Of a stretch of 62,033 bases of DNA, positions 2,067-41,769 are shown piece by piece. This stretch comes from an uncultured Verrucomicrobiota bacterium (GTDB taxonomy: Bacteria; Verrucomicrobiota; CALLYA01). The stretch covers positions 1 through 62,033 of the forward strand of contig CALLYA010000340.1 of NCBI GenBank assembly GCA_937875495.1, read 5' to 3'. A model generated the notes under the pieces. That model had not been told where the DNA came from. It saw nothing but the letters and a program-made list of their open reading frames with translations, and did not search any database. Numbering within the stretch: the first letter of the stretch is position 1; each line of letters opens with the position of its first letter. The translations under genes and the position numbers were made by a program.

Positions 2067-4763
2067 ATGGCAGAACAAAAGTTTGTGTACTACTTCGGGG
2101 CAGGTGATTCCGAAGGCGACGCCTCGATGAAGCAGCTCCTCGGCGGTAAGGGAGCCAACTTGGCCGATATGTGTACCCTCGGCCTCCCCGTTCCTCCTGG
2201 CTTCACGATTACGACGGAAGTTTGCGATCTCTATTACAAGCTGGACCGCAAATACCCCAATGGCCTGACCGAGCAGATCGAGCAAAACATCCAGAAGCTC
2301 GAAAAGGCAACCGGCAAGACCTTCGGCCACGGACCCAACCCGTTGCTGGTCTCAGTTCGCTCCGGCGCCGCCGTGTCCATGCCCGGAATGATGGATACCG
2401 TTCTCAACCTCGGCCTCAACGATGAAACCCTCCCCGCTCTGATCCAACTGACCGGGAACGAGCGCTTCGCTTGGGATTCCTACCGCCGGTTCATGCAGAT
2501 GTTCGGCGATGTCGTGCTCAGCCTGGAGCATCACGATTTCGAACACGCCCTCCAATCCGTCAAAGACCGTCGCGGCGCTAAGTTGGACACCGACCTGTGC
2601 GTCGAAGGACTGAAGGAAGTGGCCGCGGAGTATAAGAAGGTCTACGAAGCCGCAGGCAAACAATTCCCCCAGGATGCCCGCGAACAGCTTCTTGCCGCCG
2701 TCACCGCTGTCTTCGGTAGCTGGAACAATCCCCGTGCTCTCAAATACCGCGCGCTGAACGAAATCCGCGGCCTCCTCGGGACCGCCGTGAACGTGCAGAC
2801 CATGGTGTTTGGCAACATGGGCGAAGATTGCGCCACAGGTGTTGCCTTCACCCGTGACCCCTCCACCGGCGAGAACCGTTACTTCTACGGCGAGTACCTG
2901 ATCAACGCCCAGGGCGAAGACGTCGTAGCCGGGATTCGTACGCCGCAGCAAATCACCACTGCAGGCAGCCGCGAGTGGGCCGAGAACAACAGCGTCCCCG
3001 AGGATCGGCGCAAGGCCGATTTCCCCTCTCTCGAAGAGGCGATGCCGGAGTGCTTCCAGCAACTGGACCAGATCCGCGCCAAGCTCGAGAAGCATTACCG
3101 CGATATGCAGGACATCGAGTTCACGATCGAGCAGGGCACCCTCTACATGCTCCAAACCCGCAACGGTAAACGTACCGCTGCCGCGGCCGTGAAAATCGCC
3201 GTCGATATGGTCGCCGAGAACTTGATCACCGAGAAGGAAGCCGTCCTTCGCGTCGATCCCAAACAGCTCGATCAGCTCCTGCATCCCACCTTTAAGAAGG
3301 AAGCCGAAGCAGCAGCCGTCGTTCTCGCGAAAGGCTTGCCCGCCAGCCCTGGTGCCGCTAAAGGCCAAATCGTCTTCTCCGCACACGACGCCGAAACCGC
3401 GGCCCTGGAGGGGCGTGACGTCATCCTCGTGCGCATCGAGACCAGCCCAGAGGACATCGGTGGCATGGATGCCGCCAAGGGTATTCTCACCGGCCGAGGC
3501 GGCATGACGAGCCACGCGGCAGTCGTTGCCCGCGGAATGGGCAAATGCTGCGTCGCCGGTTGCGGCGATGTCGTCATCAATTATAAGGAAAAGACCATGC
3601 GCGCCGGCGATATCGTCCTCAAAGAGGGCGATTGGATCAGCCTCAACGGGTCCAACGGCAACGTCTACAAGGGCAGCGTCGATACCGTCAATCCTCAGCT
3701 GACCGGCCCGTTTGGGACCATTATGGCCCTCGCAGACAAGTATCGGACCCTCGGCGTGCGGACCAATGCCGATACGCCGCATGACGCCGAAGTCGCAGTC
3801 CAACTCGGCGCCGAGGGAATCGGTCTCTGCCGAACAGAACATATGTTCTTCGAGGGCGAGCGCATCGTTGCCATGCGCAAGATGATCCTCGCCGCCGACG
3901 AAGCCGGCCGGAAGAAGGCGCTCGACCTCCTGCTGCCGGTCCAACGCGAGGACTTCATCGGCATCTTCAAGGCACTCAAGGGATTGCCGGCCACGATCCG
4001 ATTCCTGGATCCCCCGCTGCATGAGTTCGTCCCGCACGATGAAGCCGGCCAGGAGGAAATGGCCAAAGCCATGGGCGTCTGCGCACAGGTGATCAAGGAC
4101 AAGGTGGACTCCCTCCACGAGTTCAACCCGATGCTCGGCCACCGCGGTTGCCGTCTCGGCATCTTCTACCCCGAAATCACCGCGATGCAGGCCCGCGCCG
4201 TCATCGAGGCCGCCTACGCGGTCCCCGGCTCTAAGCCTGAAATCATGATTCCGCTCGTCGGAGCCGTCAAGGAATTGACCCACCAGAAACAGATCGTCCT
4301 GGACGTCTATGATGAGATTCGTAAGGAGAAGGGGGCCGATCTCGAATACTTCAAGATCGGAACTATGATCGAGGTCCCCCGCGGGGCCCTCACCGCAGAC
4401 AAAGTCGCCGAAGAGGCCGATTTCTTCAGCTTTGGTACCAACGACCTGACCCAGATGGGCTGCGGCTTCAGCCGTGACGACGCCGGGAAGTTCCTCCAAC
4501 GCTATGTCGAACTCGGCATCTATGAATACGACCCCTTCCAGGTCCTCGACCAAGAAGGCGTCGGCGAACTCGTTCGCATCGCCGCCGAGAAGGGTCGCAA
4601 GACCAAGCCCGATCTCAAACTCGGCATCTGCGGCGAGCACGGTGGCGAGCCGAGTAGTGTGAAGTTCTGCCATAAGGTCGGACTCAACTACGTCTCCTGC
4701 AGCCCCTATCGGGTGCCCATCGCGCGATTGGCCGCCGCTCAGGCCGCGATCCAGTACGCGTAA
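2067..4763 (+). CDS. ppdK: pyruvate, phosphate dikinase
   Basis: ORF 2004..4763 trimmed to ATG 2067, behind AAGGAG (2051-2056). Has the MAEQKFVYYFG..LLGGKGANLA N-terminus, the phospho-His loop GGMTSHAAVVARGMGK and C-terminal PEP-utilising motifs (GTNDLTQ, GICGEHGG). Confidence 0.95.
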   Translation: MAEQKFVYYFGAGDSEGDASMKQLLGGKGANLADMCTLGLPVPPGFTITTEVCDLYYKLDRKYPNGLTEQIEQNIQKLEKATGKTFGHGPNPLLVSVRSGAAVSMPGMMDTVLNLGLNDETLPALIQLTGNERFAWDSYRRFMQMFGDVVLSLEHHDFEHALQSVKDRRGAKLDTDLCVEGLKEVAAEYKKVYEAAGKQFPQDAREQLLAAVTAVFGSWNNPRALKYRALNEIRGLLGTAVNVQTMVFGNMGEDCATGVAFTRDPSTGENRYFYGEYLINAQGEDVVAGIRTPQQITTAGSREWAENNSVPEDRRKADFPSLEEAMPECFQQLDQIRAKLEKHYRDMQDIEFTIEQGTLYMLQTRNGKRTAAAAVKIAVDMVAENLITEKEAVLRVDPKQLDQLLHPTFKKEAEAAAVVLAKGLPASPGAAKGQIVFSAHDAETAALEGRDVILVRIETSPEDIGGMDAAKGILTGRGGMTSHAAVVARGMGKCCVAGCGDVVINYKEKTMRAGDIVLKEGDWISLNGSNGNVYKGSVDTVNPQLTGPFGTIMALADKYRTLGVRTNADTPHDAEVAVQLGAEGIGLCRTEHMFFEGERIVAMRKMILAADEAGRKKALDLLLPVQREDFIGIFKALKGLPATIRFLDPPLHEFVPHDEAGQEEMAKAMGVCAQVIKDKVDSLHEFNPMLGHRGCRLGIFYPEITAMQARAVIEAAYAVPGSKPEIMIPLVGAVKELTHQKQIVLDVYDEIRKEKGADLEYFKIGTMIEVPRGALTADKVAEEADFFSFGTNDLTQMGCGFSRDDAGKFLQRYVELGIYEYDPFQVLDQEGVGELVRIAAEKGRKTKPDLKLGICGEHGGEPSSVKFCHKVGLNYVSCSPYRVPIARLAAAQAAIQYA

Positions 4764-31421: not shown

Positions 31422-31657
31422 GAATCGTTCTCCCCGGTTTCTCCCGGTAGGGCGCTGAGCCGCCCACTTGTCATGTCAAATGGTCGAAGTTCTACCATCA
31501 CCTGCATCCCCGCATGCCAACCCTTCGCCATCGCTCGGCAAGCGGTGATCGGATGCCCGATGACCCGGTGGCCGTTGGGCAGCCTGACCTGAAAAATTCC
31601 TGGTCGCACCTCGTCTTCGATGCAGCCATCTATTCGAATGGGGTCTTCAGCGGGCAC
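31418..31657 (-). CDS. infA: translation initiation factor IF-1 (divergent)
   Basis: S1-like OB fold: [29 protein letters not shown]...[17 protein letters not shown] start. Located in the canonical map-infA-rpmJ slot. Confidence 0.7.
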
Positions 31658-32394
31658 GTCAAAATCTCCGGCTCGCCATCGGTCACCACAATCGTGTTCT
31701 CAAAATGAGCGGAGGGCCGGCCATCGGCCGTCACCACCGTCCACTGATCGTCCAAGGTCTTGACCGCGGCCACGCCCATGTTCACCATGGGCTCAATCGC
31801 CAGGGTCATTCCCGCCTTCAATCGGGGCCCTCGCCCCGCCGGCCCATAGTTCGGAATCTGCGGCTCCTCGTGCATGTTGCGCCCAACCCCATGCCCGACG
31901 TACTCGCGCACGACGCTGAACCCACGCGCCACCACATACTCTTCGACGGCATGCGAAATGTCGCCGATGCGATTGCCGACCCGTGCCGCGGCAATCCCCG
32001 CAGCCAACGAACCCGCCGTCGCCGCCAGCAAAAGCTCGACCTCCGGAACCGTGTTCCCTACCGCGACCGTACGGGCGTTGTCGCCCACCCAGCCACGATA
32101 CACCACCCCGACGTCGATGCTGACCACATCGCCCGCATGAATCACCCGGTCACCCGGGATTCCATGAACCACCTCGTCATTGACCGAGACACAGATGTGG
32201 CCCGGGTATCCGTGGTACCCTAAAAAAGCGCTCTTCGCCCCGAGTTCCGCGATCTGCTCCGCCGCATATTGATCCAGTTCCCCCGTCGTGATCCCGGGAC
32301 GCACCCAGCGCACCACTCGCGAGAGAACCTCCGCAGCCCGCTCACAGGCCGGGCGCATCTCTTCAATCTCAGCCGCTGTCTTTCGGATGATCAA
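31630..32394 (-). CDS. map: type I methionine aminopeptidase
   Basis: 254 aa with MetAP-I metal-ligand regions (DVVSIDVGV, GHGVG, LAIEP). TTG start behind GGAGGAGGG. Confidence 0.92.
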   Translation of the reverse strand: MIIRKTAAEIEEMRPACERAAEVLSRVVRWVRPGITTGELDQYAAEQIAELGAKSAFLGYHGYPGHICVSVNDEVVHGIPGDRVIHAGDVVSIDVGVVYRGWVGDNARTVAVGNTVPEVELLLAATAGSLAAGIAAARVGNRIGDISHAVEEYVVARGFSVVREYVGHGVGRNMHEEPQIPNYGPAGRGPRLKAGMTLAIEPMVNMGVAAVKTLDDQWTVVTADGRPSAHFENTIVVTDGEPEILTCPLKTPFE

Positions 32395-32596: not shown

Positions 32597-33958
32597 TCAG
32601 AATCGGCCCCGGAGTTTGCCTCGTTTCAAAAATCCGTCGTAATGCCGCGTCAAGAGATGACTCTCGATCTGCCGCATGGTGTCTAGCATGACACCCACAA
32701 TAATCAACAGCCCGGTGCCGCCGAAGAAACTGGCGACCAGATACGGGATGTTGAACTGCTGAGACAGCAAGGTCGGTGCAACCGCGATCACCGTGAGGAA
32801 GATCGCGCCCGCAAGCGTGATCCGCGTCATGACATGGTTGAGGAAGTCGGCAGTCGGCTTTCCCGGACGCACCCCGGGGATGTAGCCGCCATACTTCTTC
32901 AGGTCGTCGGCGATCTGAATCGGATTGAACTGCGTTGCGACCCAGAAAAAGGAAAAGAACATGATCAGGGTGGTGTAGAGGATGTACCACCAGGCATGCC
33001 CCGGTGAAATGGCCGTGGCCACCGCCTGCAAGGCTCCTCCCTTGCTGATCCACCCGATGATCTTGTAAGGGAACATCATCAACGCATCCGCGAAGATGAT
33101 CGGCATCACACCCGCATAGTTGATCCGCAGCGGCAGGAACGTGTTCTGACCACCGTACATCTTACGCCCGACCACACGTTTTGCATATTGGACCGGAATC
33201 TTCCGCTCCGCTTGCGTGATCGCTACGATTCCCATGATGATGATCGGGATCAACACCAACATCAGGATCCCCTTGGCAGGGTTGTGTGCCGCCTGCTGAC
33301 CGCCACCGGGGAAAAACATCGTGACCGCCTGCATAATCGCTCCCGGCAGCCGCGCGATGATATTCACCGTGATGATCAGAGAGATGCCGTTACCGATCCC
33401 TCGCGCCGTAATCTGCTCGCCCAACCACATCAGTAAGACGGTTCCCGCAGTCAGGCAGGTCACCGCCAGGATCTGAAAACCCATTCCCGGGTTCGGAACC
33501 AATCCCGGCAACGCGGCGCCGAACAAATCCTCAGGGTGCTGCAAGGCGTAAGCGAGCATCCAGCCTTGGATCACGCAGAGCGCGACCGTCAGATACCGCC
33601 CGAATTGGATCAGCTTTTGCCGCCCGGAATCGCCTTCGCGCGCCATCCGTTCGAGACTGGGTATCACCGGGGTCAGAAGTTGCAGGATAATGGTGGCGCT
33701 GATGTACGGCATGATGCCCAGCGCGAACACCGCGGCCTGCTCAATCGCGCCGCCGCTGAAGAGGTTGAACAGCGTCAACACACCCCCGGTGCTGCTCTGC
33801 TGTTCGATTTGAGAGATGAAATCGCTGAGAACTCCTGCATTCACGCCCGGTACCGGAATGTTCGCACCAAGGCGACACACAGCTACAAGACCGAACGTAA
33901 ACAGTATTCGTTCCCGCAATTCAGGGATCTTAAATGAATCTCGAAATGCCGATAGCAT
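32597..33958 (-). CDS. secY: preprotein translocase subunit SecY
   Basis: 453 aa with ten TM segments. N-terminus LRERILFTFGLVAVCRLGANIPVPGV. Confidence 0.97.
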   Translation of the reverse strand: MLSAFRDSFKIPELRERILFTFGLVAVCRLGANIPVPGVNAGVLSDFISQIEQQSSTGGVLTLFNLFSGGAIEQAAVFALGIMPYISATIILQLLTPVIPSLERMAREGDSGRQKLIQFGRYLTVALCVIQGWMLAYALQHPEDLFGAALPGLVPNPGMGFQILAVTCLTAGTVLLMWLGEQITARGIGNGISLIITVNIIARLPGAIMQAVTMFFPGGGQQAAHNPAKGILMLVLIPIIIMGIVAITQAERKIPVQYAKRVVGRKMYGGQNTFLPLRINYAGVMPIIFADALMMFPYKIIGWISKGGALQAVATAISPGHAWWYILYTTLIMFFSFFWVATQFNPIQIADDLKKYGGYIPGVRPGKPTADFLNHVMTRITLAGAIFLTVIAVAPTLLSQQFNIPYLVASFFGGTGLLIIVGVMLDTMRQIESHLLTRHYDGFLKRGKLRGRF

Positions 33959-39240: not shown

Positions 39241-40014
39241 TTATTGTGCGTCCTGCCGCGGGGCTCCGCCCCCACGCTGCTGACCACCCCTACCGGGACG
39301 ATTCCCGCCACGACCGCCACCACCCTTGGGACCACGGCCGCCACGACCACCCGTTTGGGGCCTGCGACCGCGAACCGCCATGGTCGAGTCCTGGCCGCGC
39401 TCACGACAGATCCAAACTTTGACGCCGATCTTGCCATAGACCGTCCCCGCCTCGGCAAAGCCATAGTCGATGTTGGCATCCAACGTCTGGAGCGGCACCT
39501 TACCCTCACGGTAGCTTTCGATCCGTCCGAGCTCAGCACCGCCGAGACGGCCGCCGGCCTGGATCCGCATACCGAGAGCACCAAAGTCCATCGTCGTGCT
39601 CAGCGCCTTCTTCATCGCACGTCGGAAGCTGACACGGCGCTCCAATTGGATCGCTACGTTTTCAGCCACCAGCTGCGCGTCGAGCTCCGGAGTCTTCACT
39701 TCCAAAATGTCCAAGAAGACCTCACGCCCAGTCGCCAGGGAGAGCTCGGCCCGAAGCTTGTCGATGTCAGCGCCTTTTCTCCCGATCACGATCCCGGGGC
39801 GAGCGGTGAAAATCGTCACCCGGATCCGGTTGGAGGCGCGCTCAATGTTGACCCTCGGCACCGCCGCAAACTGCAACCGCTGCTTGATGATCTTGCGGAT
39901 CGTCAGGTCCTCGTGCAGCAGGGTTCCATAATCGCGCTTGTTCGCATACCACCTGGACGACCAGTCCTTCTTCACTGTCGTCCGAAATCCAATTGGATTG
40001 ACCTTCTGGCCCAA
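39241..40014 (-). CDS. rpsC: 30S ribosomal protein S3 with Arg/Gly-rich C-terminal tail
   Basis: [12 protein letters not shown]-terminus and KH domain. The last ~50 aa are RGG-rich ([23 protein letters not shown]). Confidence 0.95.
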
Positions 40015-40032: not shown

Positions 40033-40374
40033 TTAGCGGGGCTCCGTGTCCGTCAGCACAATTCGGATGTGACTCGTTCGCTTCAGGACCGGACCCGCCA
40101 TACCGCGGGCCTTTGCCTGGAACCGTTTCAATGCGGGGCCACTCCCGACCATCGCCTCTTTTACCCACAGGCTGGACGGTTCGATCTCGTGGTTGTTTTC
40201 CGCATTCGCCATCGCGGAGCGGACGGTCCGTCCAATGAAGCGGCTCGCCTTCCGCGGAGAAAATTTCATCAAATCCAAGGCCTGCTGCGCCGGCAGCCCA
40301 CGGATCAAATGAATTACAGACCCTACCTTTTGCGGGCTGATCCGCACATATTTGGTCGTTGCTACGACATCCAT
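40033..40374 (-). CDS. rplV: 50S ribosomal protein L22
   Basis: Start trimmed to ATG 40374 (MDVVATTKYVRISPQKV). 113 aa. Confidence 0.93.
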   Translation of the reverse strand: MDVVATTKYVRISPQKVGSVIHLIRGLPAQQALDLMKFSPRKASRFIGRTVRSAMANAENNHEIEPSSLWVKEAMVGSGPALKRFQAKARGMAGPVLKRTSHIRIVLTDTEPR

Positions 40375-40471
40375 TGTTCCGTTACTCCACCGAGGAAATC
40401 CCCGTTTGCATCCGCCTGGCGGCGATTCCTTGGTTACGATAAAGTGTTTGCGTGAGCTGGCGGCCGTTTCC

Positions 40472-41437
40472 TCAAGGGATCCGAACCGTGTCTCCCACCC
40501 GGGGCTCTCCCTCTGAACCTTCCGTCGGTTCCAGCAGCGCTCCGGCCACATGTTCCCGTAAATCGACAATGCGCGCACCGACAATGGTGCGCCCATCCCG
40601 CTCCACGGTGATTAGGGCTCCGAGGACCAATCCGCGATCCCTTCCACCCTGAATTCCGATCAGACCGAGCTCCGGACTGAAGGATAAAACTCGCATTGGA
40701 GATGCATCAGCCGCTTCCGACTGCTGCATCCTGAAAGGCGCCCGGCTCAGAGCCAACTCAATCTCTTGAGCCAGCTCAGGTCCCGTCGAGGTCCGATCGA
40801 TTTGCGCTAGCAGACCCCCAAGACGCTCACTGCGTTGACGTTCTTGATCCAGCAACTCCAAGGCCGTGATCAGCTGGCTCTGAATTTCATCCACCCCCCT
40901 GCCGAATTCCACCGCCAGGGCGAGCGTCTGCCTCCGAAGCTCAGCCTCTCGAAACTGCTCCCGGTACCGCTCGGCCAATCGATTCGATCGATTGAGCGAG
41001 GCGGTGACCTCTTCAAGTCGTGCCTGAAGTCGTCCGTTCTCCTCTTTCAAGGTAGACGCAACACTAGCCTCTCCCTTGCAGTCCTGCAACTCACGCTGAA
41101 AAGTAAGTTTTTCACCCACCTCCCGCTGGAGGCGAATCTCCATCTCCAGCAGTTGCTCCTGCAGCGAGGCATTCGTCCCTTCAAGCGCAGCAATCTTAGC
41201 CCTAAGTCCCGTTATGGTCGTTTGTAATGACCGTTCAAGGCTTGCCCATTGCGCCATCAATGCGTCGATGAAACCTTCCGCAAAGGTGTGGGTGGAGTCC
41301 TGAAATTTTTCTTCCTCCACCGCCTTTGAGGGCGTGTGCGTCACGGCCACCCACAAGATCCCAATGAACAGGATTTTAGCCCCTGTCGATCTTCGCAGGC
41401 CCCTGCCGGTTCGAAGACGATACACATCCCTTGCCAT
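40472..41437 (-). CDS. membrane-anchored coiled-coil protein with small C-terminal beta-rich domain (family unassigned), embedded in the S10 operon
   Basis: The 321-aa ORF exactly fills the 1.1-kb rpsS-rplV gap on the same strand. It has a hydrophobic span AKILFIGILWVAVT, ~180 aa of E/R/L/Q-rich heptad-like sequence and a Gly/Val-rich C-terminus. Confidence 0.65.
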   Translation of the reverse strand: MARDVYRLRTGRGLRRSTGAKILFIGILWVAVTHTPSKAVEEEKFQDSTHTFAEGFIDALMAQWASLERSLQTTITGLRAKIAALEGTNASLQEQLLEMEIRLQREVGEKLTFQRELQDCKGEASVASTLKEENGRLQARLEEVTASLNRSNRLAERYREQFREAELRRQTLALAVEFGRGVDEIQSQLITALELLDQERQRSERLGGLLAQIDRTSTGPELAQEIELALSRAPFRMQQSEAADASPMRVLSFSPELGLIGIQGGRDRGLVLGALITVERDGRTIVGARIVDLREHVAGALLEPTEGSEGEPRVGDTVRIP

Positions 41438-41490
41438 CGCTCGACCTTACCCGCGGACCTGCCGCTGCAGGCCACCACGGTTCAATGCCA

Positions 41491-41769
41491 TTATTTGCTG
41501 ACTCGCTCGGTCGCAGCTCCATGCCTACGGAAACTTCGCGTCGGGGCGAACTCGCCAAGGCGATGTCCGACCATGTTTTCAGTGACGAAAACAGTCACGA
41601 AGGCTTTGCCGTTGTGCACGTTGAAGGTGTGTCCAACGAAGTCAGGAAGGATCATGGAACGCCTGCTCCATGTCCGAATCGGGCGTTTTTGCCCGGAGTT
41701 GTCCATGCGGACGATCTTGCGCATCAAGGACTCGTCAACAAACGGTCCCTTCTTAATGGATCTGGCCAA
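41491..41769 (-). CDS. rpsS: 30S ribosomal protein S19
   Basis: [25 protein letters not shown] pattern. Confidence 0.96.

Follow-up and report, generated by a model that had tools for sequence, protein, structure and literature searches.

The run of genes from rpsJ to rpsQ is a textbook example of a frozen gene order. Ribosomal protein (r-protein) operons are known to carry non-ribosomal passengers (secY, adk, map, infA and rpoA), and small β-barrels of the FlgT_C type have likewise been described. TsaP is exported and belongs to a ring assembly of the envelope. FlgT is a periplasmic ring component (PDB code 8z5n, the 'LPHT ring'). Here we describe a gene, termed gene X in the following, that lies between rpsS (S19) and rplV (L22) in the S10 operon of an uncultured Verrucomicrobiota bacterium. 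The stretch analysed, referred to below as the window, comprises 62,033 nucleotides (nt) of contig CALLYA010000340.1 (assembly GCA_937875495.1). Gene X represents a clade-specific, uncharacterised family of predicted exported proteins that splits the rpsS/rplV junction, and it is this family that is new. In our preferred reading, to which we assign a probability of roughly 0.55, its product is an exported, abundant structural or assembly protein of the envelope, whose gene travels with the S10 operon as a passenger and is inherited vertically.

Gene X at the rpsS/rplV junction

The gap between the S19 and L22 genes of the window measures 1116 nt and is occupied by gene X. An earlier interpretation made from the DNA alone, hereafter the sequence-only reading, had reported an open reading frame (ORF) in a gap of about 1.1 kb, with spacers of 53 and 97 nt, and it is present exactly as described (Table 1). 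As a control, a metagenome scan was seeded with S19 alone, yielding 61 loci with both S19 and L22. The C-terminal domain (C-domain) of the gene X product was found inside the gap in all 32 loci with gaps of 667–1051 nt, and in none of the 29 with gaps of 4–133 nt. Since this shorter range is the normal one among the other bacteria of the sample, the gap in the window is exceptional. The surroundings are conventional: tuf, secE-nusG, rplKAJL, rpoBC, rpsL, fusA, S10, spc, secY, map and alpha follow one another on the minus strand, with secY (32597..33958) and map (31630..32394) in their usual place. A consensus search of the minus strand between 40375 and 41490 revealed neither a terminator-like nor a sigma-70-like site, which bears out the terminator-free flanks noted earlier. 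Gene X thus combines the attributes of an S10-operon passenger, namely a shared strand, short spacers free of consensus sites and a position that is kept in relatives, and its co-transcription with the r-protein genes is very probable.

An exhaustive phmmer search of 1.84 billion representative sequences (E ≤ 1e-3) returned 67 proteins, mostly of 170–305 amino acids (aa) with a few shorter fragments, which align to residues ~130–320 of the gene X product and end at their own C-termini. Contig look-ups placed the gene between S19 and L22 in 7/7 cases, drawn from the window lineage, from two members of the Kiritimatiellia type and from three contigs of long-read origin. GTDB was scanned, one genome per species, with an alignment of nine Chthoniobacterales-type C-domains. 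Of the 138 relatives confirmed, 80 loci were returned, and every one of the 74 with readable flanks has S19 upstream and L22 downstream, with S19–L22 gaps of 793–1011 nt. The loci collected to that point contain 85 complete ORFs with a median length of 269 aa. Altogether, with a single exception (below), gene X lies at this junction in every homolog locus with readable flanks, more than 100 from Chthoniobacterales/Spartobacteria and Kiritimatiellia and one from a relative of the window lineage. Named hosts are Chthoniobacter, Terrimicrobiaceae, Spartobacteria, Verrucomicrobiales, Verrucomicrobiae and Kiritimatiellia, which belong to two NCBI phyla of the Planctomycetes–Verrucomicrobia–Chlamydiae (PVC) group; the cluster names give little taxonomy beyond Verrucomicrobiota, Verrucomicrobiales and Verrucomicrobiae. 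Two further homolog searches, one returning mostly a single Kiritimatiellia subfamily and the other short fragments, serve as context and not as a measure of breadth. The arrangement had been treated as an oddity of one genome; it is in fact the rule throughout a clade that extends over two NCBI phyla. The sequence-only reading had also allowed for an already characterised family common at this position; the family is indeed common there in the lineage, but it is an uncharacterised one.

One of the 85 complete ORFs departs from this arrangement. In a Terrimicrobiaceae metagenome-assembled genome (MAG; locus L068), S19 and gene X are followed by a holB-like ORF (DNA polymerase III delta') rather than by rplV and rpsC (3268..4410), which may reflect a chimeric assembly or misassembly. 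A typical Chthoniobacterales-type S19-X-L22 arrangement also occurs on a 2.8-kb contig of a Blastocatellia MAG (JANMKA010000044.1, locus L049), and its presence in this Acidobacteria bin is probably due to binning contamination.

The window corresponds to the contig of database entry HCF95323.1, from a Verrucomicrobia MAG. The closest relative of the window gene is an ortholog with 61% identity in the same rpsS/rplV slot of a Joint Genome Institute (JGI) metagenome contig, L001, whose S19 and L22 are recorded with the Pfam domains Ribosomal_S19 and Ribosomal_L22. Between the two genes, the ratio of non-synonymous to synonymous substitutions (dN/dS) is 0.23 at a dS of ~1.4. The ratio increases from 0.14 in the coiled coil and 0.20 in the C-domain to 0.42 in the first 52 residues, and conservation is lowest in the signal-peptide region, at 12% identity. 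The flanking r-protein genes have dN/dS values of 0.002–0.16. Gene X is therefore clearly constrained by purifying selection, although it evolves faster than the r-proteins. Across 1953 pairs, the identity of the gene X products tracks that of L22 (Spearman 0.72), which indicates vertical descent. With intact orthologs and purifying selection, the non-ribosomal gene wedged into the S10 operon is genuine. The deviating codon choice that had been noticed by eye is mildly right. The codon adaptation index (CAI) of gene X is 0.644, as compared with 0.724 ± 0.042 for the r-protein genes and 0.731 ± 0.037 for the other genes of the window, its third-position GC content (GC3) of 0.61 is the lowest of the cluster, and the codons CGA, AGG and CTT are enriched; its overall GC content, however, is no different from that of its neighbours.

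The three genes lie close together in the relatives: the median distance is 3 nt between the stop of S19 and the start of gene X, and 28 nt between the stop of gene X and the start of L22. In most lineages, gene X starts 1–4 nt after the rpsS stop and rplV follows 10–30 nt after gene X. Neither a promoter nor a terminator would fit into 1–4 nt, and so close a spacing favours translational coupling; in these lineages it is compatible with coupling by termination and reinitiation. Shine-Dalgarno sequences precede gene X in only 13/74 of the Chthoniobacterales-type loci (L010–L089), whose leaders are A-rich, and almost never precede rplV (~30 such loci read). The rpsS-X spacer of the window is poorly conserved with respect to L001. 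By contrast, the X-rplV spacer has exactly the same length in both. Within it, ~70 nt immediately upstream of rplV (window 40375..40444, minus strand; L001 6988..7057) are ~90% identical, although synonymous sites are saturated and the flanking genes have a dS of 0.6–1.4. This conserved element is lineage-specific, other lineages having only 10–30 nt at this place. The X-rplV spacer shows no significant RNA fold (z = 0.55 and −0.81), no Rfam match at the gathering threshold and no promoter consensus, and an RNA element there was rejected on the fold z-scores and Rfam.

Expression data bearing on this slot come from Akkermansia muciniphila, in which Amuc_0299 ('uncharacterized protein') lies between Amuc_0300 (S19) and Amuc_0298 (L22) (PMC6538878, Table S2). 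The homology of Amuc_0299 (UniProt B2UMT5) to gene X is inferred from position only. The normalised counts of Amuc_0299 are 98 with mucin and 196 without, a 2-fold change, while the neighbouring r-protein genes change 7–41-fold (PMC6538878, Table S2, rows Amuc_0294-0306); its count is the highest of the S10 cluster with mucin and the lowest without it (PMC6538878, Table S2). The gene in this slot is thus transcribed but not strictly co-regulated, and for this positional counterpart the strict stoichiometric coupling to r-proteins raised by the sequence-only reading is doubtful. An outer-membrane proteome supplement (PMC4960237) contains no rows for S19 or L22.

Domain architecture and family assignment

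The N-terminus of the window protein consists of a basic n-region (RLRTGRGLRR), a 14-residue h-region (AKILFIGILWVAVT) and a c-region with the putative cleavage site PSKA|VEE. We called signal peptides with a heuristic of our own, which asks for a basic n-region, an h-region of 7–20 hydrophobic residues and small residues at positions −3 and −1. Signal-peptide-like N-termini were found in 70/74 intact genomic ORFs and in 41/55 database representatives, and most of those that fail seem to be gene calls cut short. The family h-region has a median length of 17 residues and is followed by an AxA-like site, as in ...LLLAARSEA|QSS and MKVVATAAAFIVLPGIFGSSA|QDN (...GIFGSSA|QDN). The shortness of the h-region in the window protein, the PSKA|VEE that follows it and the canonical signals of the relatives argue for a cleavable signal peptide and not an anchor. 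The hydrophobic segment proposed by the sequence-only reading is therefore there, whereas its description of the product as membrane-anchored gives way to a predicted Sec-exported, periplasmic protein; its placing in the envelope agrees with this prediction. Three entries of the same 90% cluster (P0170, P0172 and P0177) are annotated with 292 or 282 aa. The 292-aa call would imply a GTG start at V30 (window 41350..41437) and the loss of the signal peptide. The 321-aa start is supported by the conservation of the signal throughout the family.

The following region is a long coiled coil, as had been recognised from its heptad-like sequence. Its heptad periodicity (residues 53–232) exceeds that of 500/500 shuffled sequences, and AlphaFold2 predicts helices at 53–177, 182–216 and 220–232, mostly with a predicted local distance difference test score (pLDDT) above 90. 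The window lineage has ~70 additional coiled-coil residues. A helix-turn-helix pattern, SLA.AN.EAE.FR..Y.EL.L..EALG ... LE.RLL.AVRDL, is conserved in the family. The small C-terminal β-barrel suspected earlier is modelled as six strands (residues 248–319) with a pLDDT above 95 in the full protein, and the isolated C-domain is modelled with a pLDDT of 91.5 and a predicted TM-score (pTM) of 0.81. Gly265 and Arg294 are invariant in 68/68 aligned sequences, and Gly269, Gly273, Arg280, Gly299, Gly315 and Asp316 are conserved in at least 90% of them.

A Foldseek search of the PDB with the barrel returned as its top two hits the Vibrio LPHT ring (PDB code 8z5n; E 9e-4) and FlgT (PDB code 3w1e; E 2e-3), both with TMq values of 0.65–0.66, and the predicted barrel fold superimposes on the FlgT C-domain. 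The next hits are the N-terminal barrels of F1 (alpha/beta), V1 and FliI ATPases (TMq 0.60–0.67). As the F1 alpha/beta barrels score almost alike, the fold is not specific to FlgT. In profile searches, the Pfam family FlgT_C (PF16538) matches 25/68 C-domains of the family (best E 2.4e-5), and a few database fragments bear a precomputed PF16538 assignment. A profile of the family itself matches TsaP among the PDB sequences (PDB code 3jc8; E 1.3e-4); a further, weak match is to the lipoyl hairpin of resistance-nodulation-division (RND) adaptors. The window protein has no FlgT_C match at E ≤ 10 with the full protein or at E ≤ 1 with the domain alone. Only the barrel aligns with FlgT (87–112 columns of a 352–356-residue target), and the context is always the S10 operon, so that gene X does not encode a FlgT as a whole. 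The matches of the full protein to SH3_and_anchor (21.9 against a cut-off of 65 bits) and SMC are coiled-coil noise. Scans of the curated libraries assigned the window protein to no Pfam, NCBIfam or PDB family. Judging from these comparisons, the C-domain is a distant barrel of the FlgT_C type and the protein as a whole belongs to an undescribed family.

Table 1. Positions in the window of gene X, its parts and the neighbouring genes
Feature	Position	Strand	Basis or remark
rpsS (S19), upstream neighbour of gene X	41491..41769	minus	ORF and translation; 98.9% identity to L001 S19
rpsS-X spacer, 53 nt	41438..41490	minus	AAGG Shine-Dalgarno-like motif ~9 nt ahead of ATG
Gene X, 321 aa, predicted exported coiled-coil/β-barrel protein	40472..41437	minus	ATG start; stop codon 40472..40474
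Predicted Sec signal peptide, aa 1–39	41321..41437	minus	Read from sequence
Coiled-coil/helical region, aa 53–232	40742..41281	minus	AlphaFold2 helices and heptad periodicity
Helix-turn-helix core common to the family, ~aa 131–216	40790..41047	minus	Distant homologs align from ~residue 130
Six-strand C-terminal β-barrel, FlgT_C-like, aa 247–321	40475..40699	minus	Alignments, domain model, Foldseek, profile
X-rplV spacer, 97 nt	40375..40471	minus	GGAG Shine-Dalgarno; rplV-proximal 70 nt ~90% identical to L001
rplV (L22), downstream neighbour of gene X	40033..40374	minus	94.7% identity to L001 L22

Further downstream, the rpsC gene of the window (39241..40014, minus strand) encodes an S3 protein with a C-terminal Gly/Arg-rich, RGG-like tail. 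It comprises 257 aa, as compared with 212–222 aa in Kiritimatiellia loci.

Proposed role and alternatives

According to our preferred reading, gene X would have entered the rpsS/rplV junction in an ancestor of Verrucomicrobiota and Kiritimatiellia and would have been passed on vertically since then as a passenger of the S10 operon. Its mRNA would be part of the S10 polycistron, so that synthesis of the product would depend on the strongest growth-linked transcription unit that the cell has. The product would be a Sec-exported periplasmic protein that combines a signal peptide to be cleaved off, helices arranged as a hairpin or coiled coil and bearing a conserved face, and a barrel of the FlgT_C type. 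The helices may oligomerise, and the barrel might act as a docking or lateral-association module, as in the periplasmic rings of FlgT and TsaP and in the F1 crown. A structural or assembly role in the envelope is suggested because the product is predicted to be exported, because its modules serve interaction and not catalysis, and because a place on the S10 polycistron implies high, growth-linked synthesis.

Several points weigh against this reading. Function, localisation, abundance and oligomeric state are all inferred. The signal-peptide calls come from our own heuristic, and the window protein departs further from a canonical signal than its relatives do. The link to FlgT_C is weak, given that the window sequence lacks a Pfam match, that the Foldseek E-values are around 1e-3 and that the barrel is a generic one. 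The CAI of gene X lies at the bottom of the r-protein range, with no sign of selection for very high translation. The buffered change of Amuc_0299 hints at an internal promoter or at differential mRNA stability. Finally, five loci of the S19-seeded scan (L093, L100, L102, L104 and L149) have neither gene X nor rplV after rpsS. Unrelated genes follow rpsS in L093, L102, L104 and L149, and in L100 an apparent intrinsic terminator hairpin stands directly after it; S19 ends with ...HGVISGK in L100, L102 and L149. The five apparently represent one lineage, as the inspected ones share this C-terminal motif of S19, and in them the S10 operon seems to be divided precisely where related lineages carry gene X.

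A more far-reaching proposal is that the rpsS/X/rplV arrangement is a shared derived character of Verrucomicrobiota and Kiritimatiellota, and that the gene X product, Amuc_0299 included, is a previously unrecognised, abundant and probably essential periplasmic component of the envelope, hard-wired to ribosome synthesis. We regard this as tentative, and on balance doubtful. If true, the protein would be the equivalent, specific to this lineage, of the major structural proteins known from the envelope of Proteobacteria.

Other roles can be imagined for gene X. Each of four features counts against at least one of them, namely the domain topology, the failed family assignments, the signal peptides and the way in which constraint is distributed. 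Skp is periplasmic, and the gene X product could be a periplasmic holdase in the manner of Skp or prefoldin, in which an oligomeric body of barrels and hairpin tentacles would hold unfolded outer-membrane or secreted proteins, its supply scaling with translation capacity much as that of secY in the adjacent spc operon, which lies in the same cluster of the window. The predicted export, a hairpin of ~45 residues per arm combined with a small barrel, and the rings formed by the nearest barrel folds (F1 crown, FlgT) would all suit such a chaperone. The only sub-threshold Pfam match of the window protein, Prefoldin_2 (E 0.007), points the same way, but at 16.7 bits against a cut-off of 27.6 it is ordinary coiled-coil noise. 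Moreover, the hairpin of Skp and prefoldin is inserted between barrel strands, while the barrel encoded by gene X is contiguous, separate and C-terminal, and the Pfam scans of the window protein and the family gave no match to OmpH (PF03938). We therefore consider a holdase of this type unlikely.

About equally unlikely, in our view, is a scaffold for morphogenesis or division that would organise or activate peptidoglycan synthases or hydrolases in the manner of MreC or EnvC, the kinship that the sequence-only reading had brought up. The layout of N-terminal hydrophobic segment, coiled coil and β domain is similar, one fragment has been named MreC automatically by JGI, and the Pfam family MreC (PF04085) matches 4/68 C-domains, the window protein not being among them. 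These matches are rarer and weaker than those of FlgT_C (best E 0.012), however, and neither MreC nor an M23/LytM structure appears in the Foldseek top 50. Peptidase_M23 has no Pfam match in 40 full-length and 68 C-domain sequences, which sets the family apart from EnvC and other LytM activators. Gene X is never found beside mreB/mreD or ftsEX in more than 100 loci, and its product has a single barrel instead of the tandem β core of MreC. The suggested kinship is thus not borne out.

The position between two r-protein genes across the whole clade and the tight packing of its start on the rpsS stop could also mean that gene X encodes a cytoplasmic ribosome-associated factor or a lineage-specific ribosomal protein. 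We judge this very improbable. The signal-peptide-like starts, together with the positive-inside rule, place the body of the protein outside the cytoplasm. Its mature part forms a coiled coil and has an acidic to neutral character, in contrast to the basic, RNA-binding r-proteins. Gene X also evolves several-fold faster than every neighbouring r-protein gene, and the modelled fold resembles periplasmic ring proteins.

Slightly less probable still is a role in cis, in which the S10 mRNA would be held at the membrane by the Sec-targeted nascent chain (transertion), the protein itself being secondary. Messenger RNAs of membrane proteins localise to the membrane, and secY might tether the spc operon likewise; an exported protein encoded in the middle of an operon, with apparent translational coupling, would be suited to this. 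The constraint, however, falls on the mature part (helices A/B and barrel) and not on the signal region, whereas a purely cis role would lead one to expect the reverse, and cleavable Sec signals are often targeted post-translationally. That gene X is a spurious ORF, a recent horizontal acquisition or a mobile insertion can practically be discarded: its slightly atypical codon usage is outweighed by intact orthologs that occupy this junction in over 100 loci from two NCBI phyla, by purifying selection, by a GC content like that of its neighbours, by borders in which no repeats, integrase or tRNA were found, and by a divergence that follows that of L22.

No description of the gene X family or of its placement between rpsS and rplV was found in the searchable literature, nor any mention of Amuc_0299 or B2UMT5; a known signature protein of the PVC group, CT421.2, is described as a small protein, with no link to this locus. 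A clade-wide break of a frozen gene order by a gene for a predicted exported protein is unexpected, and an rpsS-rplV gap of ~0.7–1.1 kb containing the gene X domain provides a simple genomic marker of the clade. The clade includes abundant soil and freshwater bacteria as well as the therapeutically studied Akkermansia muciniphila, in which surface and envelope proteins such as Amuc_1100 attract direct medical interest. With gene X, this clade would possess an uncharacterised family of envelope proteins whose expression is probably high. The locus also offers a natural case of how a non-ribosomal gene is housed in an operon that is expected to make balanced amounts of its products, a question for which the buffered expression hinted at by the Akkermansia RNA-seq data is a starting point.

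Comparison with known systems

The closest structural parallels to the predicted gene X product are the C-domain of FlgT (PF16538; PDB codes 3w1e and 8z5n) and the FlgT-like domains of TsaP (PDB code 3jc8), which are likewise small periplasmic β-barrels of ~75 residues and share with it the motifs G..G(V/L)..G and (V/I)xVR..(I/V).G. In contrast to these proteins, the gene X product has neither the N and M domains of FlgT nor a LysM domain, and carries a long coiled coil instead; its gene is never located beside flagellar or pilus genes, but always in the S10 operon. MreC (PF04085) is comparable in overall layout, as in both proteins a hydrophobic segment at the N-terminus is combined with a coiled coil and with a periplasmic barrel that has a G..GV..G motif, yet gene X encodes a single barrel and lacks an mreBCD context. 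With Skp/OmpH and prefoldin, the 'jellyfish' holdases, it shares the combination of a hairpin arm with a small, possibly oligomerising β module. Since the topology differs and there is no sequence or profile match, any likeness to these would be one of functional analogy alone.

In its genomic setting, gene X resembles secY, adk, map and infA of the spc operon and rpoA of the alpha operon, which are also non-ribosomal genes fixed within r-protein operons and inherited together with them. The parallel is closest for secY, which, like gene X as we read it, ties an envelope or export function to the transcription of r-protein genes. The passengers of the spc and alpha operons, however, are near-universal, reside at operon ends and have known functions, whereas gene X is restricted to a clade, uncharacterised and, unlike any of them, splits the rpsJ-to-rpsQ core at rpsS/rplV.

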